Part shown: one piece after another, positions 23,835 through 43,744 of the stretch | How the letters are laid out: each line of letters begins with the position of its first letter | Position numbering within the stretch: position 1 is the stretch's first letter | Assembly (NCBI GenBank): GCA_964420075.1 | Contig: CAYQRE010000006.1 | Span: 74,793 to 138,792 of the forward strand | Direction: 5' to 3' | Source of the DNA: an uncultured Thermoanaerobaculia bacterium | GTDB lineage: Bacteria > Acidobacteriota > Thermoanaerobaculia > Multivoradales > SZUA-115 | Length of the DNA: 64,000 bases | Notes under the pieces: model-generated | Seen by the model: only the letters and a program-made list of their open reading frames with translations | What the model was told of the DNA's origin: nothing | Databases searched by the model: none | Position numbers and translations under genes: made by a program

Positions 23835-23851
23835 CTGGCGGGAGGTGCACC

Positions 23852-26800
23852 TTGTCGCGACCCTGGAGCAGCCACCTTCGCCGCGCGCTCCCCGGCCTTG
23901 TCGCCGTGCTCCTCGCCATCGTCGCCGGGCGCGGTATCGGCGAGCGAGAGCGGGCCCTGGAAGCCGCTGCGTCGGCTCCTCGCCTGGGGCTCCTCGTCGA
24001 GTCCTGCCGGCCGCTGTCGGCGATCGCCGAGGTCGGGATCGCCGCCGGCGACCGCCTCCTCTCCTGGCAGGAGGAGGGCCACCCCGCCGCGACGCATCCG
24101 CTCGGCACGCCCTTCGACTGGTGGGCGCTCGCCATCGAGGTCCTCCCCCGCACGGCCGTCGTCCTCACCGGCGAACGGCACGGCAAGCCGCAGAGCTGGC
24201 CGCTCGCCGCCGGCCTGGAGCTCGCCGTGGACGATGCGGTCCTCAGCCCGTCCCTGCCCACCGTCCTCGCTGCCCTCGACCGCCAGGCTCGCGCCGCCTT
24301 GGGGGACCGCAACCAGGCGCAGGCCGAGCAGGCCTGGACGCTGGCGGCCGAGGTCGCGAGCGAGCGCGGGCAGCCCCGCCTCGGCGCCTGGCTGCTCGCC
24401 GGAGGGGCCGAGCTGGCGGCGCGCCAGCGCAACGGGCCGGCGGCAGACGCCCTCTATGCAGCGGCGGCCGCGGCCCTTGCCGCCCAGCAGGACGCGGCGA
24501 CGGCGGCGCTGTTACGCCGCTGGGCACGCGCGCTCTTCCAACAAGGTGACCTCAGCCGGGCCCTGAGCACCGCAGAACAGTCGATCACGGCGGCCGAGCG
24601 ACGGGCCTCGCCGGGCCTGGACGAGGCCGAAGGCCGGCTCGCGGCCGGCTACTACCTCAACAAGCAAAGCCGGATCCCCGCCGCCGAAGAGCAGTACCGG
24701 GCCGCCCTCGCGACCTTCGAAAGCCTCGCCCCGGACTCGGCCGGGCGGCTGCTCACGCTCTCCCGGCTCGCCGGCCTGGCGCTGCGCCGAGGAGACCTCG
24801 CGGCCGCCAAGGCCACCCTGGCGCAGGCCAAACCGGCCCTGCCGAGGCTCGCTCCCGGTTCGCCTGTCGCCTCGGCCCTGTTCACCAACCTTGGAGTGGT
24901 GGCGGACTACAGCAGCGACTTCCCCCAGGCCGAGGCCTTCGCTCGGCGGTCGATCGCCATCGACGAGCGCATCGACCCGCAGGGGACCGAGGTCGTCTCG
25001 GGGCTGCTCAACCTCTCGGTGCTGACCCAGCTCAAAGGAGATCTGGGCGAGACCGAGGCGGTGCTGCGGCGGGCCCTGGCGATCCTCGAGCGGCGCGGCA
25101 CCCAGGAGATGTTGCAGGCCCTGGTGCTCAACAACCTGGGGATGCTGAGCAAGGAGCTGGGGGACATCGACGAGGCCGGCCGCTGCTTCCAGCGGGCGGC
25201 CGATCTGCTGCAGGTGCTGGCCCCGGATAGCCCCGAGAGGGCCTTGATGCAGAGCAACCTCGGGGTGATCGCCCTGCGGCGGGATGACTTCGAAGGCGCC
25301 TTCCAGGCCTTCCGCACCGCCGCCGACGACGTCGCGAGGCAAGACCTGCGGGGGCCCGTGGCAAGTCAGCCGCTCATCCACCTGAGCCTCCTCGAGCTGC
25401 GCCGTGGCGAAGACCTCGGGGCTGCCGAGCGCTACCTCGCGAGGGCCGAGGCCATCCACTTCGAGGGCCAGAGCCCGCAGGACCGCGAGCGCCTGCTCGG
25501 CAACGAGATCCGCGCCGAGATCGCCTTGCGGCGCGGCGAGGTGGCCCGGGCGCGCCAGGCGCTCACCGATGCCCTGCGCTTCACCCGCAAGGCCTTCCCG
25601 GGGACCACCAACGAGGCGACGATCCTCGCTCAGACGGCGCGGCTCGAGCGCGATCATGGCAATCCGCACCGCGCCGCCGAGCTCTACTGCGAGGCGACCC
25701 GCGTGCTCGACCACCAGCGCACCCGCCTCGCCGACAGCGACACCCAGCGCCTGCTGTTCAGCGCCACCTACGCCGAGATTTACCAGGACTGTGCCGAGGC
25801 CCTGCTGGCGATCGGCGAGCCCGAGGCGGCCTTTCAAGCCGTCGAACGCGGGCGGGCTCGGCGCTTCTTGAGCCTGCTGCGCGAGCGCGACCTGCGCTTC
25901 GCCGACCTGCCGCCGGAGCTCCTCGCCGAGCGCCAGCGCCTCGACCAGCTCTTCGACCTCACACAGCGCAGCCTCCTCGGCCTGCCCGCCGGCAGCCCGG
26001 AGGCAGCGTCGACGATCGAGGAGCTGCGCGACCTCGAGCGGCAGCGCGAGGTGATCGCCCAGCGCGTCCGTGCCGCCTCGCCCCGCCTCGCCGCGCTCGA
26101 AGACCCCACACCGCTCGACGCCGTCGGTGCCCGCCAGGCCCTCGACCCCGGCACTCTGCTCCTGAGCTTCGTCGTCGGCAAGGAGGCGACGCTGCTCTTC
26201 GTGGTCGCCGGGCCCGGGAGCGGAGGGGCCGCGGCCACCAACCCGGCTGGCCTCGACGCCTACCGCCTGCCCGTCGGCGCGGCGGCGCTCAACGACAGCG
26301 CTCGCCACCTGCGCCAGCTGGCCGAGGACCCCGCCTCCTCGACCGCCGAGCTCGACCCCTTGGCGAGCGAGCTCTACGACCAGCTCCTGAAGCCCGCCGA
26401 GGCACGGATCGCGGCTGCCGACCGCCTGTTGATCTCCGCCGACGGCCCCTTGGCTGGCCTGCCGTTCGCCGTGCTCCGTCACAACGGCCAGTACCTCGCT
26501 CTGAGCAAGCCTCTGCACCGCGCCGCCTCGGCCACCGTCTACGCCGAGGTGCTGCGGCAGCGGGCGGCCCCCAGCGCGGCGCCGCTCGCCGCCTTCGGCG
26601 ACCCCAACTACAGCGGCCTGCGCCACTCGACCCTGGCGCAACAAGACCCGACCCTCACCCGTGCCGCCGCCAACGGCCTCCGTCTCGACCCCTTGCCCGG
26701 TACCCGCAGCGAGGTGGAGGGCATCGCAGCCCTGTTCCCCAACGCCGAGGTCTTCCTGGGCTCGGCCGCTACCGAGGAGGAGGCCCGGCGTGCCTCGCCC

Positions 26801-27256
26801 ACCTCACGGATCATCCACTTCGCCTGCCACGCCGTGCTCGACGAGCGCCTGCCCCTCAACTCGGCGCTGGTCCTCAGCCAGCCCGCGGGCAACACCAGGA
26901 GCGAGAACAACGGTCTGCTCCAGGCCTGGGAGATCTTCGAGAGCCTGCGTCTCGACGCCGACCTGGTGACCCTCTCGGCGTGCAACAGCGGCCTCGGCAG
27001 GGAGCTCAGCGGCGAGGGGATGATCGGCCTCACCCGCGCCTTCCAGTTCGCCGGCGCGCGCACCGTGCTCGCCTCGCTGTGGGCCGTCTCCGACCGCTCG
27101 ACGGCCAAGCTGATGCCCCGCTTCTACGCCCGCCTGCGCGACGGACTGCCGAAGGACGCGGCGCTGCGCGAGGCGCAGCGGGCGCTCGCCGCCGAGCCCG
27201 CTACCGCCCATCCCTTCCACTGGGCGGCCTTCGAGCTGGTGGGGGACTGGCGCTAG
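23852..27256 (+). CDS. Second PDZ–TPR–CHAT protein (tandem paralog)
   Basis: TTG start 18 nt after the stop of the first gene, with GGAGG 7 nt upstream. Same architecture (PDZ-like 'VGIAAGDRLLSW', TPRs, CHAT 'IIHFACHAVLD…LVTLSACNSG'). C-terminal ~250 aa nearly colinear with gene 1. Confidence 0.78.
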   Translation: MSRPWSSHLRRALPGLVAVLLAIVAGRGIGERERALEAAASAPRLGLLVESCRPLSAIAEVGIAAGDRLLSWQEEGHPAATHPLGTPFDWWALAIEVLPRTAVVLTGERHGKPQSWPLAAGLELAVDDAVLSPSLPTVLAALDRQARAALGDRNQAQAEQAWTLAAEVASERGQPRLGAWLLAGGAELAARQRNGPAADALYAAAAAALAAQQDAATAALLRRWARALFQQGDLSRALSTAEQSITAAERRASPGLDEAEGRLAAGYYLNKQSRIPAAEEQYRAALATFESLAPDSAGRLLTLSRLAGLALRRGDLAAAKATLAQAKPALPRLAPGSPVASALFTNLGVVADYSSDFPQAEAFARRSIAIDERIDPQGTEVVSGLLNLSVLTQLKGDLGETEAVLRRALAILERRGTQEMLQALVLNNLGMLSKELGDIDEAGRCFQRAADLLQVLAPDSPERALMQSNLGVIALRRDDFEGAFQAFRTAADDVARQDLRGPVASQPLIHLSLLELRRGEDLGAAERYLARAEAIHFEGQSPQDRERLLGNEIRAEIALRRGEVARARQALTDALRFTRKAFPGTTNEATILAQTARLERDHGNPHRAAELYCEATRVLDHQRTRLADSDTQRLLFSATYAEIYQDCAEALLAIGEPEAAFQAVERGRARRFLSLLRERDLRFADLPPELLAERQRLDQLFDLTQRSLLGLPAGSPEAASTIEELRDLERQREVIAQRVRAASPRLAALEDPTPLDAVGARQALDPGTLLLSFVVGKEATLLFVVAGPGSGGAAATNPAGLDAYRLPVGAAALNDSARHLRQLAEDPASSTAELDPLASELYDQLLKPAEARIAAADRLLISADGPLAGLPFAVLRHNGQYLALSKPLHRAASATVYAEVLRQRAAPSAAPLAAFGDPNYSGLRHSTLAQQDPTLTRAAANGLRLDPLPGTRSEVEGIAALFPNAEVFLGSAATEEEARRASPTSRIIHFACHAVLDERLPLNSALVLSQPAGNTRSENNGLLQAWEIFESLRLDADLVTLSACNSGLGRELSGEGMIGLTRAFQFAGARTVLASLWAVSDRSTAKLMPRFYARLRDGLPKDAALREAQRALAAEPATAHPFHWAAFELVGDWR

Positions 27257-29199
27257 CGCACTGGCGCCCGGCGCGCCCGCAGGCGCTCGATGCCCTGCTG
27301 CGCCGCGGCCGCCAGCGCCACCCACACCAGGGGCTCGATCATCATGCGGAAGCGGTTGTTCTCGCCGTACTCGCCGAGGTTGGCGACGACGGCCACGTAG
27401 AGCACGTTGAACAGGATGAAGAGCAAGGTCGAGTGCGCCGGCTCGCGGGGTTGGCGTAGGGCCCGCCAGGCCGCCGCCGGCAGGAGGGCGAGCACCAGGC
27501 CGAGCCAGAGCCACGACACCCGGCCCAGAAGGTCACGGGTGGGCAGCCAGCGCGAGCGGTGGGAGTGCGTCCCTGGCCACGAAGCGTCGGGAGCACCGTA
27601 GACGAAGCGGCTGTAGAGACGCTCCCAGCCGGCGATCGCCTGGCGCTTGACCCGGAAGGTCGGGTGCTCGGCCGGCGGCGCGAGGAAGATCAGCCCCGCC
27701 CGCAGGACGGCGCGAAGATAGAGGCGAGGGTGGTGCCGGATCACCCGCCAGGCGTCGCGCTCGTACTCCTGCATCACGCGAGCCATCAGCCAGTGGTTCA
27801 GGTTGGGGCCGCCGTCGCGGCGGACGATCCGGCCCGTGGCCCCTTGCCTCTCCAGCAAGGACCGCAGCTGCTCGCTGCCACTGGCGACGGCCGGCAGCCG
27901 GATCGCCGGCTCGAGCTGGAAGCCCAGCCAGCGGACCGCGAGCTGGCGCGAGTCCGGCCCCAGCCCCACGTCGACCGGTGCCGCGGTAGCGGCGTAGCGG
28001 AAGCTCAGCAGGTTGAGCGGCCGGTCGAGCGCTCCCGCCGGCAGGTCGAGCCGCGGCTGGGAGACACCGGCGGGGACTCCCAGACGCGCTACCTCGTGCC
28101 CGTTCACCCGCACCTCCACCCGCTGGGGCGGCGCTCCGGGGTACTCGAACGGCGCCCAACGCAGGGCGAGCGTATGCGCCGCGGCAGAGGGGCCCGGGAG
28201 CACGAACACCGAGACCGGCCCTCTCGACCACAGGGACGGGCCCTCCACCGAGCCCTCGACCTCTTTGCTCCAACCGAGCGGCAGGAAGGCCCAGGCGTTG
28301 CGGTCCGCGAGATCGAGCCCGCCGACCTCCCGTAGGCCCCGCTCCGGCAGGCCCAGTGGATAGCGATCGATCGCCTGGTTGACCGGAAAGAGGGCGAACG
28401 GCGACAGCTCCCCCGCCTCGGCCTCGCGCCACCGCTCCTCGGGGGGCAACAGCTCGGTCGAGATCCGGTAGAGGTTGAGGCCCACGAGGCTCGAGCCGCC
28501 GAACGGGCCGAAGAGCACGGCGTTCTTGAGGTAGAGCCCACCGACGAGGACGACGGGCAGAGCGAGCACCAGGGCTTGGCGCCGGCGCGGCCGGCGTAGC
28601 CCGGCCACCACCACCACGGCCGCCACCACCCACAGCAGGTGAAAGAGGCTCCGGGTCAGGGCCACCGCGGCGATCAGCAGCGCCGTCGCCACCAGCGCGC
28701 CGCGAGCGGCATCCGCGAAGAAGCGGTGCGCCACCGCGGCGAGGGCCAGCAGGAGCACCGCCGTCGGGTAGGTGTACATCGTGTACGTCTCGTAGAGCAG
28801 GCAGGCGGGCCCGACGATGAAGAGCAGCGTCACGAACGCCGCAGCGATGGCGTTGACCCCCAACCGCCGCTGCAGGTGGAACATCAGCCAGGTCATGGCG
28901 AGGCCGAAGGACCAGTAGACGGCCGACATCGCCAGCGAAAAGTCCTCGCCGCCGAGCTTGACCACCAGGCCCACCAGGGCATTGAACAGCGGCGGCTGCG
29001 AGTGCAGCAAGAAGAGGCTCGGGAGCAGGTCCGAGGCCAGCAGGTCGCGGTCCAGCAGGTGCATGGCCGGCAGCTCCTGTGAGCTGCGCACGCCGAGGGC
29101 ATAGACGAGCGCCCGGGTGAAGGCGAAAGCGAGGAAGAGGATCGCGAGGAAGTGCCTGTCGCTCCGCGCGGAACGCAGCGGCCCTCTCGAGGGGCTCAT
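27253..29199 (-). CDS. Hypothetical polytopic membrane protein with large C-terminal extracytoplasmic domain
   Basis: 648-aa ORF with about 9 N-terminal hydrophobic helices, then a soluble domain. Convergent with the CHAT gene and overlapping it by 4 nt. No recognised catalytic motif. Confidence 0.55.
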   Translation of the reverse strand: MSPSRGPLRSARSDRHFLAILFLAFAFTRALVYALGVRSSQELPAMHLLDRDLLASDLLPSLFLLHSQPPLFNALVGLVVKLGGEDFSLAMSAVYWSFGLAMTWLMFHLQRRLGVNAIAAAFVTLLFIVGPACLLYETYTMYTYPTAVLLLALAAVAHRFFADAARGALVATALLIAAVALTRSLFHLLWVVAAVVVVAGLRRPRRRQALVLALPVVLVGGLYLKNAVLFGPFGGSSLVGLNLYRISTELLPPEERWREAEAGELSPFALFPVNQAIDRYPLGLPERGLREVGGLDLADRNAWAFLPLGWSKEVEGSVEGPSLWSRGPVSVFVLPGPSAAAHTLALRWAPFEYPGAPPQRVEVRVNGHEVARLGVPAGVSQPRLDLPAGALDRPLNLLSFRYAATAAPVDVGLGPDSRQLAVRWLGFQLEPAIRLPAVASGSEQLRSLLERQGATGRIVRRDGGPNLNHWLMARVMQEYERDAWRVIRHHPRLYLRAVLRAGLIFLAPPAEHPTFRVKRQAIAGWERLYSRFVYGAPDASWPGTHSHRSRWLPTRDLLGRVSWLWLGLVLALLPAAAWRALRQPREPAHSTLLFILFNVLYVAVVANLGEYGENNRFRMMIEPLVWVALAAAAQQGIERLRARRAPVR

Positions 29200-29267
29200 T
29201 TTTCGATTTTACTCGACGTCGTAATTCTAGTCAGGCAGGACGCGCCGCAGCCGGCGCCACGCTTCGC

Positions 29268-30851
29268 TCAGCGCAGCAGCGCCGGCAAGCGCGCTTCGAC
29301 CTCGGCGCGCGAGAGCCCGAGGAGATCGGCGTGGGCGAGCAGGGGGGCGAAGTCCACTGGGTAAAGATTGCCGCGCGCCGGATCGGCGAGGCCGGCGACG
29401 TTGCGGGGCGCGATCGCCGCCGCGACCCACTCTTCGAAGGCAGCGAGAGCAGCCGGCAGCGGGGCAGCGCCCAGCACGGTGAGCCGGTCGTGGGCGGCGT
29501 GAGGCCAGCTGGCCACGAGCTCGTCCGTCGCTCCCAGGAAGCCCCGCCAAGCCCAATCATCGGCCTCGGGATGGAGGCGCCGCAGGGCCTCACCGAAGCT
29601 CGCCGCCGCGAAGTAGAGCTGGGCGTAGGCGGCGAATGCCCGGAAACTACGGCGGGCGCGGTAGGCGCCGGCGATCAGGCGGTCGAGGTGGTCGGCCTCG
29701 CAGGCGAGCTGCTGCTGGTAGCGCGCGAGGGCGGCCGCGGAGGGCAGACCGCGCTCGAAGAGCCGGCCGATCCGCTCGACGCCGGCGAGGCTCCAGGCGA
29801 TCCCGGTCGAGAAGAGGGGATCGCTGAAGGCGTAGGTGCTCGGCAACAGCAGCCAGTGCTCCCCCACGGCGCGGCACAGGCGGTGCTGCACCCGCGGCAC
29901 GAAGCCCAGAGGCCGGACGGCCTCGGCGGCCTCGAATTGGGCAGCGAGCGAGGGGTAGCGGGCGAGGAGCCGGGCCCAGAGCTCTGCAGCCGCCCCGCCT
30001 TCGGCGAGGAGCCCCGCCGCCGCGGGCTCGTCGAGGTCGAGCAGGAAACCAGCGCTCGTCACCCCGTCGTCGAAGGGGAGCACGTACATCCAACCGAGGT
30101 CGGTCAGGTGGTGGTTGGCCGCCCAATGCTCGGGGTAAGGAGGCGCGGGCAGCGGCGCTCCCTCCGCCGTTGCCACCTCGGCGAAGGGGTGCACACCAGT
30201 GAAGTGGCCGTAGACCAGCGCCGAGCGAACGGCCGAGGGCTCCGGCGCGACGATCCCCGGCACGACGGAGGCGTACAGGCCACGGCCACCGCTGGCATCG
30301 AGGACGAAGTCGGCGCTGGCGGCGAAGTCGCGGCCGTCCTGCCGGCCCTGGATCTGCACGCCCTGGGGACGGCGGCACACGGCCGTCACCTCCACCCGCT
30401 CGTGGACCTCCACGCCTTCCTCCGCGGCGCGGGCGACGAAAAAGGCGTCGACGTCCTCGCGCAGCCAGTGGCTGTCGGCCACCGCGTCGCTCGGGCTCGC
30501 CGCCACCAGCAGCCGGGCCAGCGGCGCGTCGGCGAACTTCCGGCCCGGCTGGTGGCCGTAGAAGCTGAAGCCGCGTTTGAGGCCACGGCGCAGCGCCGGA
30601 TAGGCCGCCAGCCAGCGGCCGTAGGCGGCCAGGGCGCGGAGATCGGGGAGGTCGTAGCGCGCGGCGAGGGCTTCGAGGGCGATCGCCGCGAGCGGCGTCG
30701 ACGACTCGCCGAGGGCGAAGCGCGGGTGCTGGCCGCGCTCGAGCAGGAGGACGCGGTACTCCAGCCGGTGGAGCACGCGGGCAGCGAGAGTGCCGGCGAA
30801 GCCGGAGCCGACCACGGCGACGGTCGCGCTCACGCTCCGCACTCCGCACAC
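29268..30851 (-). CDS. FAD-dependent oxidoreductase, tryptophan-halogenase-like family
   Basis: Rossmann motif 'VAVVGSGFAGTLAAR' at the N-terminus. 'GWMYVLPF' resembles the halogenase WxWxIP block, and 'FSDPLFSTGI' resembles the FxDPxxSxG motif. GTG start. Overlaps the radical SAM gene by 22 nt. Confidence 0.6.
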   Translation of the reverse strand: MCGVRSVSATVAVVGSGFAGTLAARVLHRLEYRVLLLERGQHPRFALGESSTPLAAIALEALAARYDLPDLRALAAYGRWLAAYPALRRGLKRGFSFYGHQPGRKFADAPLARLLVAASPSDAVADSHWLREDVDAFFVARAAEEGVEVHERVEVTAVCRRPQGVQIQGRQDGRDFAASADFVLDASGGRGLYASVVPGIVAPEPSAVRSALVYGHFTGVHPFAEVATAEGAPLPAPPYPEHWAANHHLTDLGWMYVLPFDDGVTSAGFLLDLDEPAAAGLLAEGGAAAELWARLLARYPSLAAQFEAAEAVRPLGFVPRVQHRLCRAVGEHWLLLPSTYAFSDPLFSTGIAWSLAGVERIGRLFERGLPSAAALARYQQQLACEADHLDRLIAGAYRARRSFRAFAAYAQLYFAAASFGEALRRLHPEADDWAWRGFLGATDELVASWPHAAHDRLTVLGAAPLPAALAAFEEWVAAAIAPRNVAGLADPARGNLYPVDFAPLLAHADLLGLSRAEVEARLPALLR

Positions 30852-31783
30852 GAGACGGCCGGCTCCCCTGCCCCCGCGAGGTTGATCCGTGCCAGCCGCT
30901 TACGCCGAGCCGCGAAGCAGCACGGGCAGGCGGCGAGGCGTTCGAGGTCCCAGAGGTCGGCCGTCACCACACCGCCGCCGAGCGCGAGGGCGCCGTCGAG
31001 GGCCGCCTCCAGCTGAGCGAGGTTCGGCGGCACGAACTGCCCACGCGCAGCCAGCGCGTCGAGGCCGCCACCACCGCGCACGGGGATGAGGCTCACCACG
31101 CCGACCCCCTGTGCAAAGGCGAGCTCCGCCGAGCGCACCGCCCAGGCCACCGCCTCGGCGGGCGGCACGAACGGCGCCCCCACCAGCACGAAGGCCCGCA
31201 TCCCCACCCCCGCACCGCGCAAGGTACGCGCAGCGGCCGCGAAGTCCCCGAGCGTCATCCCCTTACCGGAGCGGGCGAGCGCCTCGGGATGCGCCGTCTC
31301 AAGCCCCATCGCCACCTCCAGCCGCCCCGCGAGGCGCTCCGCGAAGGCGAGGCAGCGCCGGCCGACCAGGCGGGGATGGCTCTCGACCACCACGCCGAGA
31401 AAGGGCCGCGCGAGCTCGGCGAGCGCCGCGTCGTCCGCCTCCGGCACCGCCCGGTGGTCGAAGAAGTTGCTGGCGTTGTAGAGCTTGAGGAGAGTTCCCG
31501 CCCGTTCCCTGGGCGGCACCCCGGCGAGCGCGCTCGCGAGTTGCGCCGGCAAGGCCCCAGGCGGCGTGGGGCCGTCGAGGGTGTGCTGCCAGAGGTCACA
31601 GAACACGCAGGAGAAGGGGCATTCGGCACCGGTGAGAAAGACCGTGAGCGCCGCCACCTGCCCTCCTCCCGGCCGGCGCTCCTCCTCGCGCAGCACGCCC
31701 TGCGCCCGCCAATTATCGAGCGCGGGCTTGGGCGGGCGGTGCATGGGCCAGAGGATAGCCCCACAACGGAGCGAGCGGTCCAC
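30830..31783 (-). CDS. Radical SAM domain protein (about 300 aa, Cys-rich C-terminus)
   Basis: CxxxCxxC cluster 'TGAECPFSCVFCD' about 55 aa from the N-terminus. C-terminal 'CPCCF…SCAEC' suggests a zinc ribbon or auxiliary cluster. Start ambiguous (GTG at 31783 or ATG at 31744). Confidence 0.65.
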   Translation of the reverse strand: MDRSLRCGAILWPMHRPPKPALDNWRAQGVLREEERRPGGGQVAALTVFLTGAECPFSCVFCDLWQHTLDGPTPPGALPAQLASALAGVPPRERAGTLLKLYNASNFFDHRAVPEADDAALAELARPFLGVVVESHPRLVGRRCLAFAERLAGRLEVAMGLETAHPEALARSGKGMTLGDFAAAARTLRGAGVGMRAFVLVGAPFVPPAEAVAWAVRSAELAFAQGVGVVSLIPVRGGGGLDALAARGQFVPPNLAQLEAALDGALALGGGVVTADLWDLERLAACPCCFAARRKRLARINLAGAGEPAVSCAECGA

Positions 31784-32175
31784 CTGCGCGGACGCACTCG
31801 CCCGCAGGAACGCCGATGAGGTGATGAGATCGGGGCCTTCTACGAGGGGACGCCTTCGACGGTCGAGGGCTGGCGGTCAGCGCCAGGCCCGAGGTGGCGC
31901 CTTGGCCGGGGCGATGCGGAAGGGCGGTATGAAAGAGATGCCGCTCTTGGCCCTCGACGACGAGCAGGCGCGCTACTTCCGCGGGGCCGCGGAAGAGCAG
32001 ATCGTGGTCAGCCGCCCCGGCCAGCGGGCAGGCACATCGGTTTCGGCTCCGAGGACGCCTGGTTCGACTGCCGGCTGGACTACGAACCGCACTTCACCAG
32101 CGCGGCGAGAGCGTCCGCGCCAGGTAGCGCGCAAAGCGACGAGTGAGGCTGGAGAACCGGCCGCCGGAGGCCCCC

Positions 32176-33531
32176 TCACGCCACCTGGCAGTAGAGGTCG
32201 AGGAAGTGGCGGCGGTAGGTCTCCGCATCGTGGCCGAGGCGGCTCATGCGGGCCTCGTCCGAGGTCGCACCGTCCTGGAAGCGCCGCTTCTCGTAGACCG
32301 GCATCTCGAGCCCGGTGACGGCGGCGACGCCGCGGCGGACCACCTCGCCCTTCAACGCATAGAGCTGGGCGTGCGAACCGCCGGTCAGCGCCGCGAAGGG
32401 GATGGCCTCGGCCACCGCGATCACCGCCGGCCGGGTGTAGGGCGAGAAGCCCACGAAGCCATGGCGGGCGGCCGGAGCGTAGGTGCGCACGGTGCCCCGC
32501 GAGAGGCCGCCGCTGTAGGTCAACGAGTGCTTGATGCAGTCCACTCCCCAGCCCTCGTGGTAGAGCATTCGGTTGTTGACCACGCTGCGAATCGTCAGCT
32601 CAGCGTTCTCCTCGATCGGGTAGTCCTTGAGGTTCTCGTCGCCGCCGTCGCCGTCGACCAAGAGCTGCCAGTCCGGGTAGCGCTGGCGCAGCGCCGCCAG
32701 CAGCGCCAGGTTGACCGCCGCGCATTCGACGTCGAGGGGCTTGTAGTCCTCGATCACCTCGACTGCCGCCAGCGGGTCGACGGCAGAAGCCGGCACCTCG
32801 ATCACCTCGTGGAAGAGCCCGAGGTCCAGCCGCGAGAGGAAGTCCCGTGCCTGTGCCGCGTCGGCGCCGCCCTCGACGGAGAGCGTGAAGGCCTTGAGCC
32901 GCGCCGGGCTCTGGCCGAGATCGAGCAGAGCGCGGTAGAGGCAGAGGAAGACGGCGCCGCTGTCGATGCCGCCGGAGAGCAGGACGCCGATCGGCGCCCC
33001 GGGGTCGACGCTGCCGAGCCAGCTGCGCACTTCGTCCATCAGGGCGCCGACATACTGCCGGCCGATGAGATCGAGGTCGGGCGGCAGCACGGCCCGCTGG
33101 GGATCGAAGAAGCGGCGGTAGACGGGGTTCGGGTCCGGGCAGCCGACGAGCCGCAGCTCGGTCACGTGGTGCGCCGGCACCATCCGCGTGTAGGAGGGAT
33201 GGAACTGCGCCGCCTTGCCCTCGCCGGCGAGGAAGTCGCGGATCTCATCGATGCGCTCCGCCACCACCAGCATCGGCCCCGCGACCTCCTTGGCCAGGAA
33301 GTAGCGCAAGGGACGGTCGAGGCTGCGAGCGAGGTAGACCTTCTCGCCCCCGCGGGCCACCAGCGCGAAGGAGCCCTGCAGGCCGAGCACCGCGGCTGGC
33401 TCGCCGCTCACCAGCCGGCGGCGGGCCTCGGCGAGATCGACGCCCGGCAGCCGCTGGCGGGCCGGGTCGGTGAGGTCGACAAGGCGGGCGATGGTGCGCT
33501 GGTGGGGCGGCGGGGCGAGGGTGGTTTCCAT
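32176..33531 (-). CDS. Asparagine-synthetase-B-family amidotransferase homolog lacking the N-terminal glutaminase nucleophile region
   Basis: Internal ATG 'METTLAPP' with GGAGG 4 nt upstream. PP-loop 'GVLLSGGIDSGAV', 'LLVDGDGGDE' and AsnB-like 'GSFALVARGGEKVYLARSLDRPLRYF'. About 100 N-terminal residues of canonical AsnB, including Cys1, are absent. Confidence 0.7.
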   Translation of the reverse strand: METTLAPPPHQRTIARLVDLTDPARQRLPGVDLAEARRRLVSGEPAAVLGLQGSFALVARGGEKVYLARSLDRPLRYFLAKEVAGPMLVVAERIDEIRDFLAGEGKAAQFHPSYTRMVPAHHVTELRLVGCPDPNPVYRRFFDPQRAVLPPDLDLIGRQYVGALMDEVRSWLGSVDPGAPIGVLLSGGIDSGAVFLCLYRALLDLGQSPARLKAFTLSVEGGADAAQARDFLSRLDLGLFHEVIEVPASAVDPLAAVEVIEDYKPLDVECAAVNLALLAALRQRYPDWQLLVDGDGGDENLKDYPIEENAELTIRSVVNNRMLYHEGWGVDCIKHSLTYSGGLSRGTVRTYAPAARHGFVGFSPYTRPAVIAVAEAIPFAALTGGSHAQLYALKGEVVRRGVAAVTGLEMPVYEKRRFQDGATSDEARMSRLGHDAETYRRHFLDLYCQVA

Positions 33532-33700
33532 GGGGCCTCCTGGCGGGTCGCGTCCGCACCCGAGCTTACCGCGGCCGGCGCCGTGGCGGCTTTCGCCGCG
33601 GGATGACGCCAAGTCCTCCGGGGGGACTCTGCCGCCCGCCGGTTCGGCGGCGCGGCCGGCCTCGGCCCGATCCACCGCACCCGCCCCGGAGGACTGCCCC

Positions 33701-35947
33701 ATGCGAACGACCGCTCATCGATCCCGCCCGGCCGCCCGCCGTGGCCTCGCGGCGCTCCTGGCTCTGGCCGCGCAGCTGGGCCTCGCCGTTGCCGCCCACC
33801 CCGACTTCCTGCCCGGCTGGAGCCAGCCCAAGGGGGCCTGGAGCTTCTCGGTCGCCCTCGGCGACGTCGACGGCGACGGCGATCTCGACGCCTACGTCAC
33901 CGACTTCTTCACCGGCGACACGCTGTGGCTCAACGACGGTACCGGCACCTTCACGGACAGCGGCCAGTCCCTCGACACCGGCATGGGCAGCCTCGCCCTG
34001 CTGGCGCCCCTCGACAGCGGCACCTCCCTCGACCTCTGGCTTTCCCGCCACCTGGCGAGCAACCGCGTGTGGTTGAACGACGGGCTCGGCACCTTCACCG
34101 ACACGGGCCAGTCGATCGGCGGTGCGGAGAGCCGCCGCGGCGGCGCCCTCGGTGACCTCGACGGCGACGGCGACCTCGACGCCTGCGTGCCCACGAGCTC
34201 GCCGACCAATCCCAACCGGGTGTACTTCAACGACGGCACCGGCACCTTCACGGACAGCGGCCAGTCCCTCGGCAGCTATTCCAGCCTGGGGGTCGCCCTC
34301 GGCGACGTCGATGCCGATGGCGACCTTGACGCCCTGGTCGCCAACAACGGTGCCAACAAGCTCTGGCGCAACGACGGCCACGGCGTCTTCGCCGACACCG
34401 GCCAGACACCCGGCACGGGCGGCACCTTCGGCGTCGCCCTCGGCGACCTCGACGGCGACGGCGACCTCGACGCCTTCTTCGCCAACGGCAGCAACGGCGG
34501 CGAGGCCAACGAGGTCTGGCGCAACAACGGCAGCGGCGCCTTCACGAGCGGCGGCCAGTTCCTCGACGACGACTACTCGTGGTCCCTCGTCCTCCTCGAC
34601 TGCGAGGGGGACGGCGACCTCGACGCCTTCGTGGGCAACAACGCCGGCCAGCCCAACCGCCTCTACCTCAACGACGGCGCCGCCCACTTCAGCGACAGCG
34701 GCCAGCCGCTGGGCGTGGGCGGCGGGATCTCGGTGGCCGCTGGCGACCTCGACGGCGACGGCGACAGCGACCTCTTCGTAGCCAACGCGGCGCAGCCCAA
34801 CCAGGTGTTCTGGAACGATGGTGCCTGCCACTTCACCGACTCGCTGCAGCTCCTCGGCGGCAGCCGCGGCATCTCAGCGGCGCTCGCCGACCTCGACGGC
34901 GACGGTGACCAGGACGCCCTGATCGGCTCCACCGCCGGCATCGTGCGGGTGCTGCTCAACGACGGTGTGGGCGGCTTCACCGACAGCCACCAATGGCTCG
35001 CCAACGGCTACGGCAGCCTCAACAACGTGCTCTTGGTGGCCGATCTCGACGGCGACGGCGATCGCGACCTCTGGGTGGGCGACGGCGGGCGGACGGCGAG
35101 CGACGACGACCCGGCCGATCGCCTGTGGTGGAACGACGGTGCCGGCACCTTCACCGACAGCGGCCAGCGACTGGGCAGCGAGAGCACCACCGACGGGGCC
35201 TTGGGGGACGTCGACGGCGACGGTGACCTCGACCTCGTGGTGGCCAACTACCCGTCGCTCTTCTCGCCGGGAAGCAACGTCCTCTACCTCAACCAGGGTG
35301 GCACCTTCACGGCGAGCGGCACGAACCTGGGCCTCGGCAACACCACGGCCGTGGCCCTCGGCGACCTGGATGGCGACCAAGACCTCGACATCTTCTTCGC
35401 CAACCGCGGCGAGGGCAGCAAGGTCTGGCGCAACGCCGGCGGCGGCAGCTTCACGGACAGCGGCCAGTCCCTGGGTAGTGCCCAGACCTTCTGTCTCGCC
35501 CTCGGCGACCTCGACGGCGACCAGGACCTCGACGCCTTCTTCGGCAACGGCGGCGGCAACACCGTCTGGCTCAACGACGGCACCGGGGCCTTCACCGACT
35601 CCGCACAATCCTTGGGAACGCTCAACACCGTCGCCGTCCATCTGCTCGACGTCGACGGCGACGGCGACCTCGACGCCTGGACCACCAACGGCAGCGGCGG
35701 GCCGGAGCCGGCGCAGGTCTGGCTCAACGACGGCAGCGCTCGCTTCACGGACAGCGGTTGGCTGCTGGCGAGCAGCCTGGCGGCCGACAGCGCCCTCGGC
35801 AACGTCGACGACGACACCGACCTCGACGTATTGGTGGTGAGCGGTGACGGCGATCACCAGCTGTGGGTGAACCAGTACTCGGGGCCGCTCTTCGCCGACG
35901 GCTTCGAGAGCGGTGACACCACCGCCTGGACCCTCACCGAGCCGTGA
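33701..35947 (+). CDS. Secreted FG-GAP/VCBS (integrin-alpha-like β-propeller) repeat protein
   Basis: Internal ATG with GGAGG upstream. Tat-like signal 'RSRPAARRGLAALLALAA'. More than 12 repeats of 'LGDLDGDGDLDAF…N…W.NDG.G.FTDSGQ.LG'. Confidence 0.8.
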   Translation: MRTTAHRSRPAARRGLAALLALAAQLGLAVAAHPDFLPGWSQPKGAWSFSVALGDVDGDGDLDAYVTDFFTGDTLWLNDGTGTFTDSGQSLDTGMGSLALLAPLDSGTSLDLWLSRHLASNRVWLNDGLGTFTDTGQSIGGAESRRGGALGDLDGDGDLDACVPTSSPTNPNRVYFNDGTGTFTDSGQSLGSYSSLGVALGDVDADGDLDALVANNGANKLWRNDGHGVFADTGQTPGTGGTFGVALGDLDGDGDLDAFFANGSNGGEANEVWRNNGSGAFTSGGQFLDDDYSWSLVLLDCEGDGDLDAFVGNNAGQPNRLYLNDGAAHFSDSGQPLGVGGGISVAAGDLDGDGDSDLFVANAAQPNQVFWNDGACHFTDSLQLLGGSRGISAALADLDGDGDQDALIGSTAGIVRVLLNDGVGGFTDSHQWLANGYGSLNNVLLVADLDGDGDRDLWVGDGGRTASDDDPADRLWWNDGAGTFTDSGQRLGSESTTDGALGDVDGDGDLDLVVANYPSLFSPGSNVLYLNQGGTFTASGTNLGLGNTTAVALGDLDGDQDLDIFFANRGEGSKVWRNAGGGSFTDSGQSLGSAQTFCLALGDLDGDQDLDAFFGNGGGNTVWLNDGTGAFTDSAQSLGTLNTVAVHLLDVDGDGDLDAWTTNGSGGPEPAQVWLNDGSARFTDSGWLLASSLAADSALGNVDDDTDLDVLVVSGDGDHQLWVNQYSGPLFADGFESGDTTAWTLTEP

Positions 35948-36416
35948 GCAGGGCCGCTCGGGCGAGGGCCCAGCGGGCGGCGAGCGCGATGGGAAGACCG
36001 ATCAGGAACATGTGAACGAGGAGGCCCGAGATCAGCACCGGCAAGGGAAAGCGCAGCGGCGTGGGGAAGCGCGACAGCGGCACCACGACGAGGTTCATCA
36101 CGGCGTAGATGCCGGCGCCGTAGAGGGGTCCCAGGATCCCCGGGCGACGCGCGAGGGCGGGCCAGGCGCGGCTCGCCAGCACGAAGGCCGCGGCGAAGGT
36201 GAGGGCGATCCCAAAATGGAGGGCGAGGCCGAGGGCGGCGGTCGCCGCGCCGCCACCGTAGGCCTCCCGACCGAGGAGCCCGCTCGCCACCGACTGCAGC
36301 ACTCGCGCCGGTGGCACGGCACGGCGCAGCCACGAGAAGACGACCGCGTAGGTGATGTCGAAGGCGCCGGCGACGAGGCCTCCAACGGCGATGGCAGTCA
36401 GGGTGCGGGCGCGCAT
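35934..36416 (-). CDS. Small hypothetical membrane protein (4 TM)
   Basis: Internal ATG 'MRARTLTAIAVGGLVAGAFDITYAVVF…'. Uniformly hydrophobic 160-aa product. Confidence 0.5.
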   Translation of the reverse strand: MRARTLTAIAVGGLVAGAFDITYAVVFSWLRRAVPPARVLQSVASGLLGREAYGGGAATAALGLALHFGIALTFAAAFVLASRAWPALARRPGILGPLYGAGIYAVMNLVVVPLSRFPTPLRFPLPVLISGLLVHMFLIGLPIALAARWALARAALLTAR

Positions 36417-36694
36417 GGTTGCGCCCAGAAGCTTACCCGAGAGTCGTCTGCGACCTGGCCTCCTGGCGCTCTGCCGCACCGGCCTCGGGGAGGAGACGGC
36501 CGCCGGACGGCCCTGACGGTTCTCGCGCCGCCGCCAGCAGTCCACAGGAGCGGCCCTCGCTGGCCAGCGGCCTACCCGTCCGTGTGTGGAAGGCCGCCCC
36601 GCCGGCGAACCAGGATCGCCGTTGTAGGATTCCTCCGCTCATCCGAGCGAACAACGCCGAGTATCGGCTGGGAAGGGAGCCCGGACCCACCGCC

Positions 36695-37804
36695 ATGCCC
36701 AAAGTCTTCGTCCCCAAAGAGACCCGCAGCGGCGAGACCCGCGTCGCCGCGACCCCCGAGACCGTCAAGAAGCTCATCAAGGCCGGCCTCACCGTCGCCG
36801 TCGAGGCCGGTGCCGGTGCCAGCGCCTCGATGGCCGATGCGCAGTACCAGGCCGCCGGCGCTGAGATCCTCGACGTGGCGACCGGCTACGCCACGGCGCA
36901 GATGGTGCTCAAGGTGCAGCCCCCCACCGCCGCCGAAGCTGCCCGGCTGACGGCCGACACGGTGCTGATCGCCTTCATGGCCGCCCACCGCAACGCCGAC
37001 GTGGTGAGCCAGCTGGCCCAGGGCCGCGTCAGCAGCCTCGCCATGGAGCTCATCCCGCGCATCACCCGCGCCCAGGCGATGGACGCCCTGTCCTCTCAGG
37101 CGTCGATCGGCGGCTACAAGGCGGTGCTGGTCGCCGCCGCCCGCCTCGGCAAATACTTCCCCCTGCTGATGACCGCCGCCGGCACCATTCCTCCCGCCAA
37201 GGTGGTGGTGATGGGAGCGGGGGTCGCCGGCCTGCAGGCGCTCGCCACCGCCAAGCGGCTGGGGGCCGTGGTCGAGGTGTCGGACGTGCGCGCGGCCGTC
37301 AAAGAGCAGGTGCAGTCCCTCGGTGGCAAGTTCATCGACCTGCCGCAGACCGAGAGCGGCGAGGGCCAGGGCGGCTACGCTCGCGAGATGGGCGAGGACT
37401 TCCTGCGCCGCCAGCGCGAGATCGTTCAGCAGCGGCTGGCCCAGGCCGACGTTGCGATCACCACCGCGCTCATCCCCGGCAAGCCGGCGCCGCGCCTGAT
37501 CAGCCGCGAGATGGTCGAGGCGATGAAGCCGGGGGCGGTGATCGTCGACCTGGCGATCGAGCAGGGTGGCAACTGCGAGCTGTCGCAGGCGGACGTCGAG
37601 GTCAATCATGGCGGCGTCATCATCCTCGCCCCCTCGAACCTGCCAGCGAGCGTACCGATGGATGCTGCCACCCTCTACAGCCGCAACGTCCTCGCGCTTG
37701 TGCAGACGCTGGTCAAGGATGGCGCGCTCCAGCTCGACCTCGCCGACGAGGTCGTCGCCGGTGCCCTCCTCACCCACGCCGGCGAGGTCTGCAAGGCCGG
37801 CTGA
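36695..37804 (+). CDS. pntAA: NAD(P) transhydrogenase alpha subunit part 1 (dI, NAD(H)-binding domain only)
   Basis: 'MPKVFVPKETRSGETRVAATPETVKKL', 'IPRITRAQAMDALSSQASIGGYKAV', 'VVVMGAGVAGLQA' and 'TTALIPGKPAPRLISREMVEAMKPGAVIVDLA' track E. coli PntA dI closely. The ORF stops right after dI (369 aa). No pntAB or pntB follows. Confidence 0.8.
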   Translation: MPKVFVPKETRSGETRVAATPETVKKLIKAGLTVAVEAGAGASASMADAQYQAAGAEILDVATGYATAQMVLKVQPPTAAEAARLTADTVLIAFMAAHRNADVVSQLAQGRVSSLAMELIPRITRAQAMDALSSQASIGGYKAVLVAAARLGKYFPLLMTAAGTIPPAKVVVMGAGVAGLQALATAKRLGAVVEVSDVRAAVKEQVQSLGGKFIDLPQTESGEGQGGYAREMGEDFLRRQREIVQQRLAQADVAITTALIPGKPAPRLISREMVEAMKPGAVIVDLAIEQGGNCELSQADVEVNHGGVIILAPSNLPASVPMDAATLYSRNVLALVQTLVKDGALQLDLADEVVAGALLTHAGEVCKAG

Positions 37805-37864: not shown

Positions 37865-37981
37865 ACAGCGGCGGCGTGGTGAGCGCTGTGCTAGCCTCGA
37901 CGCATCTTCTGGGGTCTCCATGGGCTCTCGGTGGCTCGCCCTGCCGCAGGCGGCGGGTCGCCGGCGATGGGAGGTGCGGGC

Positions 37982-39934
37982 ATGCGATCAGCGGCGGAGC
38001 GGGCCAGCGGTCCGATCATTGAGCTCACCCTGCGTTCGGCCCTCGCCGGCATCGTCTTCGGCGTGCTCTTCGGGGCGGCCAACGCCTACCTCGGCTTGCG
38101 CGTCGGGCTGACCGTCTCGACCTCGATCCCCATCGCCGTCCTCACGGTTGCCTTCTTCAGGCTGCTGCCCAGCCGCCGCGGCAACACGATCCTCGAGGCC
38201 AACCTCTCGCAGACCATCGGCTCAGCGAGCTCGTCGCTCGCCTCGGGCACGATCTTCACCATCCCAGCCCTCTTCTTGTGGGGGATCGCGCCGCCGCTCT
38301 GGCAGGTGGCCACCCTCGCCTTCCTGGGCGCCATCCTCGGCATCGCGGCGATGGTGCCTCTGCGCCGGTTGCTGATCGTCGACAGTGCCGCGGAGCTGCC
38401 GTACCCGGAAGGGACGGCCTGCGCCGAAGTCTTGAAGGCCACCTCTCGGGAGGCCAAGGGCGGCCGGCTGATCTTCCTCGGCCTGGCCGTGGGAGCGCTC
38501 ATCAAGCTGACGATCGGCGGCCTCTGCCTGATCTCCCCCGAGCTCGGCTTCCATCTCGCCGCGCTGCCCAAAGCCGAGCTGACGCTCGAGGTGGCACCGG
38601 CGCTGCTGGCCGTCGGCTACATCCTCGGCTACCGGCAGTCGGCGATCATGGTCTCTGGAAGCCTGATCTCCGCCTTGGTGCTGACGCCGTTGATCGCCCT
38701 GGTGGGCGACGGCCTGCCGGCGCCCCTCTTCCCCGAGGCCACGTCACTGATCCACGACCTCTCGGCCGGCCAGATCTGGTCACGCTACGTGCGCTACATC
38801 GGCGCTGGCGCGGTGGCTGCCGCCGGCATCGTGACCGTGCTGCGCTCGCTGCCCACGATGTACCGTTCGCTGGCGGCCGTGGTCGCTGGGCTGCGCCGGC
38901 AGCGCGGCAGCGAGGCGCCGGCCGAGGTGGTGCGCACGGACCGCGACATCCCTGGCTGGGTGGTCCTGGTGGCCCCGATCATCGTGGTCCTGGCGCTGGT
39001 TGGCATCCCGGGCCTCCTGGCCGGCGAGATGAGCTTCGTACCGCGGCTGGCGGCGAGCCTCGGCGTGGGCCTCTTCAGCATCCTCTTCGTGGCCGTCTCG
39101 TCGCGCATCGTGGGCCTGATCGGTGTCTCCTCCAACCCGACCTCGGGAATGACGCTGGTGACGCTCCTCGGCGTCTCGCTGATCTTCGTCCTCTGCGGCT
39201 GGACGGACCCCTCGGCGCGCGCCGCGATCCTCACCGTCGGCACGGTGGTCTGCATCGCCGCCTCGAAGGCCGGCGACATCTCGCAGGACTTGAAGACCGG
39301 CTTCCTCGTCGGTGCCACGCCGGCTCGCCAGCAGGCCGGCCAGTTCCTCGGTGCTGCCTTCGCCTGCTGGGCGGTGGCCGGCACGGTCCTGCTGCTCGGC
39401 CAGGCCTACACCTTCGGCTCGCCGGAGCTGCCGGCGCCGCAGGCCACCCTGATGAAGACGGTGATCGAAGGCGTGATCTCCGGCTCGCTACCCTGGGGCC
39501 TGGTGGGCACCGGCGGCGCCTTCTCGCTCTGCGCCATGCTGGCGGGCCTGCCCGGCCTCGCCTTTGCCGTCGGCATCTACTTGCCGCTCGGCAGCATGAC
39601 GCCGATCTTCGTCGGCGGCTTGGTGCGCGCGCTCGTCGAGCGGCGGCGCCAGGCGGCGAGCGGCGAGGGGGACCCCGGTGTCCTCGCCGCCTCGGGGCTG
39701 ATCGCCGGCGAGGGGCTCGCCGGGGTGGCGATCGCCTTCCTCGCCGTCAGTAAGAAGTGGCCGGGCTCGACCCTCGGTGAGCTGCTGACGTCCTGGCGCT
39801 TCGCCGAACCGGACCTGGTCCGTCTGGCGGCCACGCCGAGCCTATGGTTGGGGGTTGCGCTCGTCGTCGGCGTCTCGGCCCTGCTGTATCGCGCCGGGCT
39901 CGGCGCCAGCGTGACTCCAGCGGAGCCTCGCTGA
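37982..39934 (+). CDS. OPT-family oligopeptide/glutathione transporter
   Basis: ATG with GGGAGG 7 nt upstream. About 16 TM helices. N-terminal 'LTLRSALAGIVFGVLFGAANAYLGLRVGLTVSTSIPIAV' and overall length fit the bacterial OPT family. Confidence 0.75.
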   Translation: MRSAAERASGPIIELTLRSALAGIVFGVLFGAANAYLGLRVGLTVSTSIPIAVLTVAFFRLLPSRRGNTILEANLSQTIGSASSSLASGTIFTIPALFLWGIAPPLWQVATLAFLGAILGIAAMVPLRRLLIVDSAAELPYPEGTACAEVLKATSREAKGGRLIFLGLAVGALIKLTIGGLCLISPELGFHLAALPKAELTLEVAPALLAVGYILGYRQSAIMVSGSLISALVLTPLIALVGDGLPAPLFPEATSLIHDLSAGQIWSRYVRYIGAGAVAAAGIVTVLRSLPTMYRSLAAVVAGLRRQRGSEAPAEVVRTDRDIPGWVVLVAPIIVVLALVGIPGLLAGEMSFVPRLAASLGVGLFSILFVAVSSRIVGLIGVSSNPTSGMTLVTLLGVSLIFVLCGWTDPSARAAILTVGTVVCIAASKAGDISQDLKTGFLVGATPARQQAGQFLGAAFACWAVAGTVLLLGQAYTFGSPELPAPQATLMKTVIEGVISGSLPWGLVGTGGAFSLCAMLAGLPGLAFAVGIYLPLGSMTPIFVGGLVRALVERRRQAASGEGDPGVLAASGLIAGEGLAGVAIAFLAVSKKWPGSTLGELLTSWRFAEPDLVRLAATPSLWLGVALVVGVSALLYRAGLGASVTPAEPR

Positions 39935-43730: not shown

Positions 43731-43744
43731 GGAGAGCCTGCACC

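Follow-up and report, generated by a model that had tools for sequence, protein, structure and literature searches.

Introduction

Do three neighbouring genes that share a strand also share a function and, if so, what do their products make? The question is raised by a 64,000-nucleotide (nt) stretch of contig CAYQRE010000006.1 from an uncultured Thermoanaerobaculia bacterium (the window; positions are window coordinates, and the G+C content is about 72%). In it, three minus-strand genes encode an asparagine-synthetase (AsnB)-like ligase, AsnBL, a radical S-adenosylmethionine (radical SAM) enzyme, rSAM, and a halogenase-family flavoprotein, Hal. A preliminary description, drawn from the sequence alone, had read this trio, together with an adjoining membrane protein, as a small biosynthetic cassette, perhaps of the kind that makes RiPPs (peptides that are synthesised on the ribosome and modified after translation), and had named a 68-residue open reading frame (ORF) as an unconvincing precursor candidate. 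All the features are present as described; the membrane protein and the 68-residue ORF fall outside the unit that comparison with other genomes delimits.

We conclude that AsnBL, rSAM and Hal form a compact biosynthetic or modification operon, assembled from known enzyme superfamilies in an apparently undescribed combination. Each of the three proteins belongs to a known superfamily and fails at least one defining test of its nearest characterised family. Typing against Pfam and NCBIfam brought none of them to a curated family cut-off or a housekeeping equivalog, and the housekeeping identity that the preliminary description had considered as an alternative was rejected on that ground. Full-text literature searches found no paper on the combination; those on nitrilobacillin, ammosamide and a sponge halogenase concern systems other than the trio.

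Results

Conservation of the trio

A scan for AsnBL with one genome per species returned at least 566 stretches that carry a relative. The best 80 of these, named here as their submitters labelled the metagenome-assembled genomes (MAGs), come from Acidobacteriota (Thermoanaerobaculia, Vicinamibacteria, Holophagae), Gemmatimonadota, Verrucomicrobiota and Planctomycetota (Gemmatales), with single MAGs labelled Deltaproteobacteria and Lysobacterales also among them. Sixty loci had enough downstream DNA to be informative, and 52 of them keep AsnBL, rSAM and Hal in this order, separated by median gaps of 60 and 27 nt. Of the same 60 loci, three lack Hal, one lacks rSAM and four, all from Verrucomicrobiota, have AsnBL alone, absence being scored next to AsnBL only. 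Because so large a share of the informative loci retains all three genes in the same order, their linkage is far beyond chance, and the compact cassette first proposed for the window holds as a set of three linked enzymes whose synteny is conserved across phyla.

In the two nearest relatives of the window (loci L088 and L089) the trio genes overlap stop to start. A reciprocal metagenome scan that began from Hal found rSAM, and AsnBL where there was room for it, upstream in most relatives, along with a few stand-alone paralogues. The neighbour-joining trees built for AsnBL and for Hal agree in large part, and the major lineages group together in them. This congruence, the constant gene order and the agreement of the reciprocal scan indicate that the trio is inherited as a block, most likely for the greater part vertically; plasmid and phage collections, searched as a check on mobility, gave no trio matches.

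It is conceivable that three unrelated genes, with no common function, have stayed together by chance or through inherited gene order. Gene order can indeed last without shared function, since tmk, holB and dsbA are also syntenic within Acidobacteriota. However, only the trio persists in at least five phyla, amid flanks that all differ, its genes overlap or lie tens of nucleotides apart, the AsnBL and Hal trees agree, and no housekeeping equivalog is found among the three. We consider fortuitous adjacency very improbable.

In two Verrucomicrobiota MAGs of Limisphaerales type (L076, 11184–12320; L081, 5491–6543), AsnBL is followed by a D-2-hydroxyacid dehydrogenase gene, with no rSAM; an isopropylmalate-synthase-like gene lies further downstream in L076. 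The dehydrogenase may be an alternative partner that processes the product of the AsnBL ligase.

AsnBL, a glutaminase-less ligase

The sole Pfam match of AsnBL is to Asn_synthase, over the PP-loop region and with 39 bits, and its score against TIGR01536 (30.9 bits) is below the curated equivalog cut-off of 267.1. The PP-loop motif SGGxDS, here SGGIDSG, occurs in 47 of 47 relatives. A Met-Cys start occurs in none of them and a Cys anywhere within the first 15 residues in one, and compared with E. coli AsnB the PP-loop is displaced towards the N-terminus by about 55 residues. Together, the lack of a Met-Cys start and the displaced PP-loop indicate that the glutaminase part of AsnBL is shortened and without its nucleophile, as the preliminary description had recognised.

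An AlphaFold2 model of AsnBL (predicted local distance difference test, pLDDT, 86) was compared with the PDB by Foldseek. Its best match is beta-lactam synthetase (1mbz, 1jgt, 1mc1; E about 3e-14, TM 0.62), followed by human ASNS, E. coli AsnB, TsnB9 and the carbapenam synthetase CarA (1q15, E 6e-10). Like beta-lactam and carbapenam synthetases, AsnBL is predicted to fold into two domains, a vestigial one at the N-terminus and an adenylation domain with the PP-loop. In contrast, the relationship is almost undetectable in sequence. The AsnBL family profile reaches ASNS in the PDB with E 0.008 only, and a search of a single AsnBL sequence against 1.8 billion cluster representatives returned 734 proteins at E≤1e-3; judged by sequence, the family is an outlier. 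In the profile alignment DGDGGDE of AsnBL pairs with SGEGSDE of ASNS, so that the general-base Glu of AsnB is Asp in AsnBL, at the position equivalent to AsnB Glu348 and the catalytic Tyr348 of beta-lactam synthetase. AsnBL also differs from these synthetases in its context, as the CEAS and CarB/CarC partner genes were found in none of the loci.

The preliminary description had likened AsnBL to both beta-lactam synthetases and lasso cyclases. The lack of a glutaminase site and the closeness of the fold to beta-lactam synthetase and AsnB agree with the first comparison; the second found no support, in that no lasso or macrolactam hidden Markov model (HMM) matched the window protein. Lasso cyclases, TsrC and PesC resemble AsnBL in belonging to the AsnB superfamily and in activating a carboxylate for N–C bond formation. 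Unlike them, the trio comes without precursor, B-protease or RiPP recognition element (RRE) genes, and PesC and TsrC, unlike AsnBL, keep the use of glutamine. Two further candidates, a Nit1C/MSMEG_0568-type cluster and the PEP-CTERM amidotransferase, were rejected because the window proteins had no NCBIfam match to them.

Several motifs of AsnBL are invariant: SGGIDSG, QFHPSYTRMVPAHH, GCPDPNP and DGDGGDENLKDYPIEEN. Of these, QFHPSYTRMVPAHH and GCPDPNP are located in the vestigial N-terminal domain and the linker. The N-terminal domain bears invariant His/Cys-rich motifs of its own, a further difference from beta-lactam and carbapenam synthetases. Another invariant motif, EGWG..IKHS.TYSGG, falls in a loop that is disordered in the model. 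To our knowledge, QFHPSYTRMVPAHH, GCPDPNP and EGWG..IKHS.TYSGG have no counterpart elsewhere. Identity to the window proteins is 62–76% for AsnBL, a range that spans phyla, 45–70% for rSAM and 38–59% for Hal, and AsnBL is thus strikingly constrained. Apparent natural fusions of AsnBL to rSAM were discounted, as the long database proteins concerned are frameshifted read-throughs.

A rare and distant AsnBL subfamily, with about 30–37% identity, keeps the F.P.YT.M.PAH and DGDGG.E motifs. Its members in L085, L086 and L087 each stand divergent from a TrmB- or AsnC-type helix-turn-helix regulator, with no rSAM or halogenase gene close to them.

rSAM, a relative of RaSEA

The N-terminal CxxxCxxC motif of rSAM is invariant, and the extra C-terminal Cys cluster already seen in this protein of about 300 residues takes the form CxxC-x22-CxxC in 42 of 47 and about 62 of 70 relatives. 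The match to the general radical SAM profile is weak. The best curated relative is RaSEA (TIGR01210), with E 2e-16 and 60.1 bits against a cut-off of 212, and the match to TIGR01212 (MnmL/YhcC) is marginal (E 0.004); by these scores rSAM is related to the RaSEA family without being a member. An AlphaFold2 model (pLDDT 95) finds bacterial Elp3 as its best Foldseek match (5l7l, E 6e-7), followed by PFL-AE and viperin, and sequence searches of the PDB, profile search included, returned no solved structure related to rSAM. The protein has no SPASM/twitch domain, only the CxxC…CxxC knuckle. No ArcS or TGT-like gene was found near the operon; the conserved partner of rSAM is AsnBL.

In the ArcS–RaSEA system of Euryarchaeota, ArcS does not accept NH4+, Asn or Gln and instead transfers lysine; it needs the complex with RaSEA for its activity, just as RaSEA, which turns preQ0-Lys into archaeosine, works solely in that complex (PMC11298593). 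The similarity to the trio lies in a radical SAM enzyme of the TIGR01210 lineage and in a partner that attaches a nitrogen-bearing group without glutamine, the radical enzyme then processing the product (PMC11298593). The differences are that the partner here is an ATP-dependent PP-loop ligase of AsnB fold and not a TGT/PUA-domain ArcS, that the score of rSAM is far below the family cut-off, that the host is bacterial with no sign of tRNA binding, and that Hal is added. MnmL/YhcC, a tRNA-demodifying enzyme that converts cmnm5s2U to nm5s2U (bioRxiv 10.64898/2026.05.18.725915), belongs to the same broad radical SAM clade, which performs N-dealkylation while keeping the nitrogen on the substrate. 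It differs from rSAM in its partners and its tRNA context, as well as in the marginal nature of the match. Both RaSEA and MnmL/YhcC strip an amino-acid-derived alkyl group, and the nitrogen stays on the substrate.

These relationships raise the possibility that the trio modifies tRNA or rRNA, with rSAM and the PP-loop ligase building or trimming a carboxyl- or amide-bearing nucleoside side chain that Hal then oxidises. The characterised relatives of rSAM (RaSEA, MnmL/YhcC, Elp3) all act on tRNA, and the level of AsnBL identity between phyla is what would be expected for the reader of a universal macromolecule. The operon also sits amid housekeeping genes, and the stand-alone distant AsnBL homologues beside TrmB/AsnC-type regulators occur in the genome-reduced Candidate Phyla Radiation (CPR) and DPANN. 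PP-loop enzymes are, moreover, common in tRNA modification. Yet all three proteins are acidic (median pI 5.8–6.3, net charge −4 to −8), profile typing detected in none of them a domain for RNA binding such as PUA, THUMP or TRAM, and rSAM scores far under the cut-offs for RaSEA and MnmL. No tRNA or modification genes lie consistently near the operon, and we know of no enzyme of the flavin-dependent halogenase family that acts on RNA. On balance we regard RNA modification as unlikely.

Hal, a predicted flavin-dependent halogenase

Hal matches Trp_halogenase, with weak matches to many flavin adenine dinucleotide (FAD) families. A phmmer search of the PDB retrieved PltM (E 1.9e-40) and CtcP (E 7e-37), with homology over more than 340 residues. 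The window protein carries GSGFAG and the two blocks, GWMYVLPF and FSDPLFSTGI, from which a halogenase-like flavoprotein had originally been proposed. The glycines of GxGxxG (G15-x-G17-x-x-G20) are present in 54 of 55 orthologues, and F-x-D-P-L-F-S-T-G is kept across them. A lysine in GLKRGF (Lys92 in the numbering of the 527-residue ORF) is found in 55 of 55 relatives and aligns with the Lys of 'GIKLGFSF' in PltM and 'GQKSNFGF' in CtcP; we take it to be the catalytic lysine, equivalent to PrnA K79 and PltM K87. By these features Hal belongs to the two-component-type flavin-dependent halogenase family, which speaks to the choice between halogenase and monooxygenase left by the preliminary description, and halogenation, or possibly hydroxylation, is the predicted activity.

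Hal shares GxGxxG, the aligned Lys and F-x-D-P-x-F-S-x-G with PltM and CtcP. It differs from them in having W-x-Y-x-L-(R/P) in place of WxWxIP, and in lacking a polyketide or pyoluteorin cluster context. Across the family the degenerate motif reads G-W-M-Y-x-L-(R/P)-F, with Tyr for the second Trp in 48 of 55 and Pro in 18 of 55 sequences. Weak matches to QhpG and LodB, flavoproteins that modify protein-bound Trp, are limited to the FAD-binding N-terminus. The substrates of PltM and CtcP are free phenolic compounds.

Since the degenerate WxWxIP could open the flavin site to direct hydroxylation, Hal might instead be a phenol hydroxylase of aromatic catabolism or detoxification, with the ligase and rSAM activating or cleaving a side chain. 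An intradiol dioxygenase gene lies directly after Hal in L089, and stand-alone Hal paralogues are found beside PaaA/PaaC-like or aldehyde dehydrogenase/enoyl-CoA hydratase genes, both of which would suit such a role. Against this, the lysine of GLKRGF is invariant, the link to a dioxygenase is confined to one locus, and the regulators, transporters and downstream pathway genes usual for catabolic operons are not conserved here. Radical SAM enzymes are also unusual in aerobic aromatic catabolism. A catabolic function seems to us a remote prospect.

The stand-alone Hal paralogues, found without AsnBL or rSAM (L093, L095, L098, L106, L114 and L118; 37–47% identity), also have TPR, AIR-synthase-related, UvrD and citrate synthase genes among their neighbours. 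Their existence makes the Hal family broader than the operon. The L089 dioxygenase (PF00775, 12065–12670) lies 43 nt after Hal on the same strand, and no other neighbour points to a substrate of catechol or phenol type; in Gemmatirosa, Hal is followed by a gene for a major facilitator superfamily (MFS) transporter.

The locus and its neighbourhood

The gene models of AsnBL, rSAM and Hal (Table 1) are backed by identical proteins and gene calls from contigs of the same organism, and the window AsnBL is identical to database protein P0001. The GTG start of Hal and the stop codon of rSAM share four nucleotides (GTGA). The operon promoter is presumed to lie within the divergent intergenic region upstream of AsnBL, although that region holds no sigma-70 consensus; a search for riboswitches and leader RNAs found no Rfam family in the window or in seven loci examined.

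Table 1. Positions of the trio, its surroundings in the window, and distant AsnBL genes at the named loci.
Feature	Position	Length	Strand	Remarks
AsnBL	ORF 32176–33702; start taken at 33531, giving 32176–33531	451 aa	minus	AsnB-like ligase; first and most conserved gene of the operon
rSAM	ORF 30830–31783; called from 31744, giving 30830–31744	304 aa	minus	Radical SAM enzyme
Hal	ORF 29268–30851 (527 aa); called from GTG 30833, giving 29268–30833	521 aa	minus	Halogenase-family flavoprotein
AsnBL–rSAM spacer	31745–32175	431 bp	strandless	Holds the 68-aa ORF and a plus-strand ORF fragment
68-aa ORF	31973–32179	68 aa	minus	Inside the AsnBL–rSAM spacer
Divergent intergenic region	33532–33700	169 bp		5' of AsnBL; common to the opposite-strand FG-GAP gene
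Membrane protein	27253–29199	648 aa	minus	At least 8 hydrophobic segments; outside the operon; lineage-specific insertion
FG-GAP gene	33701–35947		plus	Lineage-specific insertion
DUF1440-like gene	35934–36545			Lineage-specific insertion
CHAT/TPR protein	23657–27256		plus	Lineage-specific insertion
ORF	21843–23072			Lineage-specific insertion
pntA	36692–37804			Flank also present in L088
tmk	19786–20640			Flank also present in L088
DsbA-like gene	17724–19238			Flank also present in L088
Pyridoxal phosphate (PLP) decarboxylase	16176–17639			Flank also present in L088
OPT oligopeptide transporters (two)	37931–39934; 41970–43730
GCS2-like ligase with CBS domains	40029–41954
AMP-binding enzyme	43745–45247		minus
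Gamma-glutamyltranspeptidase	45335–47059
Distant stand-alone AsnBL	L085 3496–4908; L086 2201–3625; L087 928–2364			Kerfeldbacteria (CPR) MAG, Nanoarchaeota (DPANN) MAG and related contigs

When all flanking ORFs were clustered against one another, no family besides the trio reached more than 14 of 82 loci. The genes directly beside the trio vary in kind and often lie on the other strand. Most genomes have a divergent gene upstream, and the gene downstream is often convergent, which makes the trio a self-contained transcription unit. Within Acidobacteriota the recurring neighbours are tmk, holB, a DsbA-like gene, a nitroreductase and manC. In the nearest relative, L088, pntAB is divergent from the trio, and tmk, holB, dsbA and the PLP decarboxylase follow. 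Because the window shares the outer flanks pntA, tmk, the DsbA-like gene and the PLP decarboxylase with L088, the FG-GAP, DUF1440-like, membrane and CHAT/TPR genes and the ORF at 21843–23072 are insertions of this lineage. Around the trio, the arrangement pntAB, trio, tmk-holB-dsbA is a conserved part of the core genome and not a variable biosynthetic island.

The membrane protein, which has a marginal, weak GT-C-like match and no family, was rejected as part of the operon: it is absent in all other lineages, has its own promoter-like site and lies inside a lineage-specific insertion. That site (29206–29234, minus strand, CTGACT-17-TAAAAT) is the only sigma-70-like match in 27000–34000, where 0.1 would be expected by chance, and occupies an AT-rich patch. 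Its location between the stop codon of Hal and the ATG of the membrane gene suggests that the latter is transcribed separately from the trio.

The gap between AsnBL and rSAM is similarly peculiar to this organism. It measures 431 bp with the rSAM start at 31744 (392 bp from the longer rSAM ORF), compared with the median of 60 nt elsewhere and the overlapping genes of L088 and L089. Its sequence matches only contigs of the same organism, and neither Pfam nor Rfam matched within it. A plus-strand ORF fragment in the spacer begins MKEMPLLALDDEQARYFRGAAEEQIVVSRPGQ and runs on in another frame, also with no Pfam match; it may be left over from the insertion of a small gene. The 68-residue ORF has no family match. 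A search for conserved small ORFs at all four intergenic positions in about 50 loci returned gene ends and antisense artefacts only. Lying in a spacer unique to the organism, and with no conserved small ORF elsewhere, it was discarded as a precursor peptide. No protease, RRE or transporter partner is conserved among the neighbours of the trio. With small ORFs conserved at none of the loci, the data do not support a classical RiPP cluster, and nothing positive speaks for the RiPP-like reading of the preliminary description.

A peptide or protein substrate could nevertheless be encoded elsewhere, either as a RiPP with an unlinked precursor or as a protein-derived cofactor in maturation; the chemistry might then comprise amidation or lactam formation at the C-terminus or on a side chain, radical cross-linking, and halogenation or hydroxylation of Trp or Tyr. 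AsnB-like enzymes amidate, nitrilate or cyclise peptides, as in lasso cyclases, TsrC and PesC (PMC13060819), and like them radical SAM enzymes and Trp halogenases have peptide-acting members. The weak similarity of Hal to QhpG and LodB, and an AsnBL conservation that could mirror a conserved protein substrate, point in the same direction. These points have to be set against the absence, across about 50 loci, of a conserved small ORF within the operon or beside it, the restriction of the 68-residue ORF to this organism, the lack of an RRE, leader peptidase or transporter among conserved neighbours and of any lasso or macrolactam HMM match, the knuckle that rSAM carries in place of SPASM/twitch, and the confinement of the QhpG and LodB matches to the N-terminus of Hal. 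Modification of an unlinked peptide or protein is possible, without positive evidence, and we judge it improbable, to about the same degree as a role in RNA modification.

Three further features of the surroundings were recorded. The window, many Gemmatimonadaceae and a single Verrucomicrobiota MAG (L006, L010, L020, L021, L033, L035, L037, L038, L058, L062 and L065) have a gene for a secreted FG-GAP/VCBS-repeat protein that adjoins the trio upstream, in divergent orientation. Genes of this kind are plentiful in these phyla, and chance may thus account for the recurrence, as may a regulatory region in common. Two TPR+CHAT-domain proteins of very large size (the window gene and an adjacent gene in L002, 10141–11799), convergent with the membrane gene, belong to the insertion that separates Hal from tmk in this lineage. 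Finally, the run of genes at 37931–47059 in the window is suggestive of peptide or glutathione-type metabolism.

Discussion

As to function, our tentative preference, held with less than even confidence and by analogy with characterised relatives, is a stand-alone operon that would convert a common cellular carboxylic acid into an amide- or lactam-type small molecule, which is then halogenated or hydroxylated. The acid probably bears or acquires an electron-rich aromatic ring. In the first step AsnBL, whose fold and motifs are those of an adenylating enzyme, would bind ATP at the PP-loop, adenylate the carboxylate and capture it with an amine. Because AsnBL has no glutaminase site, the nitrogen cannot come from glutamine hydrolysis; the amine could be that of an amino acid, free ammonia or an intramolecular amine. 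In the second step rSAM, translationally coupled to AsnBL and probably bound to it, would process the new N-substituent. In the third, Hal, with reduced flavin and O2, would add chlorine or bromine, or possibly a hydroxyl group, to a ring resembling phenol, pyrrole or indole, an activity predicted from its family. Such an operon would need no dedicated neighbour genes.

The coupling of a glutaminase-less ligase to a relative of RaSEA and MnmL suggests a more specific form of the second step, in which AsnBL and rSAM, driven by ATP, would do on a carboxylate what ArcS–RaSEA does on a nitrile. A small-molecule substrate is favoured by the acidity of the three proteins, by the use of free phenolics by PltM and CtcP, and by the dioxygenase of L089 and the MFS transporter of Gemmatirosa.

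Several observations weigh against the small-molecule pathway. Every chemical step in it is drawn by analogy. All characterised relatives of rSAM act on tRNA and not on small molecules, and the identity of AsnBL between phyla, set against 38–54% for Hal, is a better fit to a conserved macromolecular substrate than to tailoring. The operon lies amid the housekeeping genes tmk and holB in Acidobacteriota, and no exporter, regulator or flavin reductase is consistently near it. Carboxylate adenylation by AsnBL is an extrapolation, since Asn_synthase models match it weakly, and halogenation by Hal is not assured because its WxWxIP motif is degenerate. Some genomes carry AsnBL alone, or AsnBL and rSAM without a nearby Hal, and the three steps may consequently not be strictly sequential.

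It is also possible, although we think it decidedly unlikely, that AsnBL and the RaSEA-like rSAM act on a macromolecule: an amino acid would be ligated to a carboxylate on a tRNA nucleoside or protein residue and radically cleaved so that only its nitrogen is kept, and the product would then be modified by Hal. If so, the trio would represent a glutamine-independent route for installing an amide or amidine, and a new modification pathway of primary metabolism in Acidobacteriota, Gemmatimonadota and Verrucomicrobiota.

Hundreds of species, and metagenomic sequences in their thousands, carry the trio; they come from soil phyla that are among the most abundant and least studied. It is kept intact in soil and water bacteria of several phyla, with a ligase conserved at the level of core translation proteins. 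It brings adenylation, radical SAM and flavin/halide chemistry together in a minimal package that has no accessory genes. It also offers a test of whether nitrogen donation by an amino acid, followed by radical cleavage of that amino acid as in the ArcS–RaSEA scheme, reaches beyond archaeal tRNA. Gemmatirosa kalamazoonensis, with the three genes at about 4,646,014–4,650,160 of CP007128, is a cultured carrier that makes direct testing possible, and Opitutaceae EW11 is another. Solving the function of the trio would reveal either a new and widespread metabolite, possibly halogenated and relevant to the natural formation of organohalogens in soil, or a new macromolecular modification.

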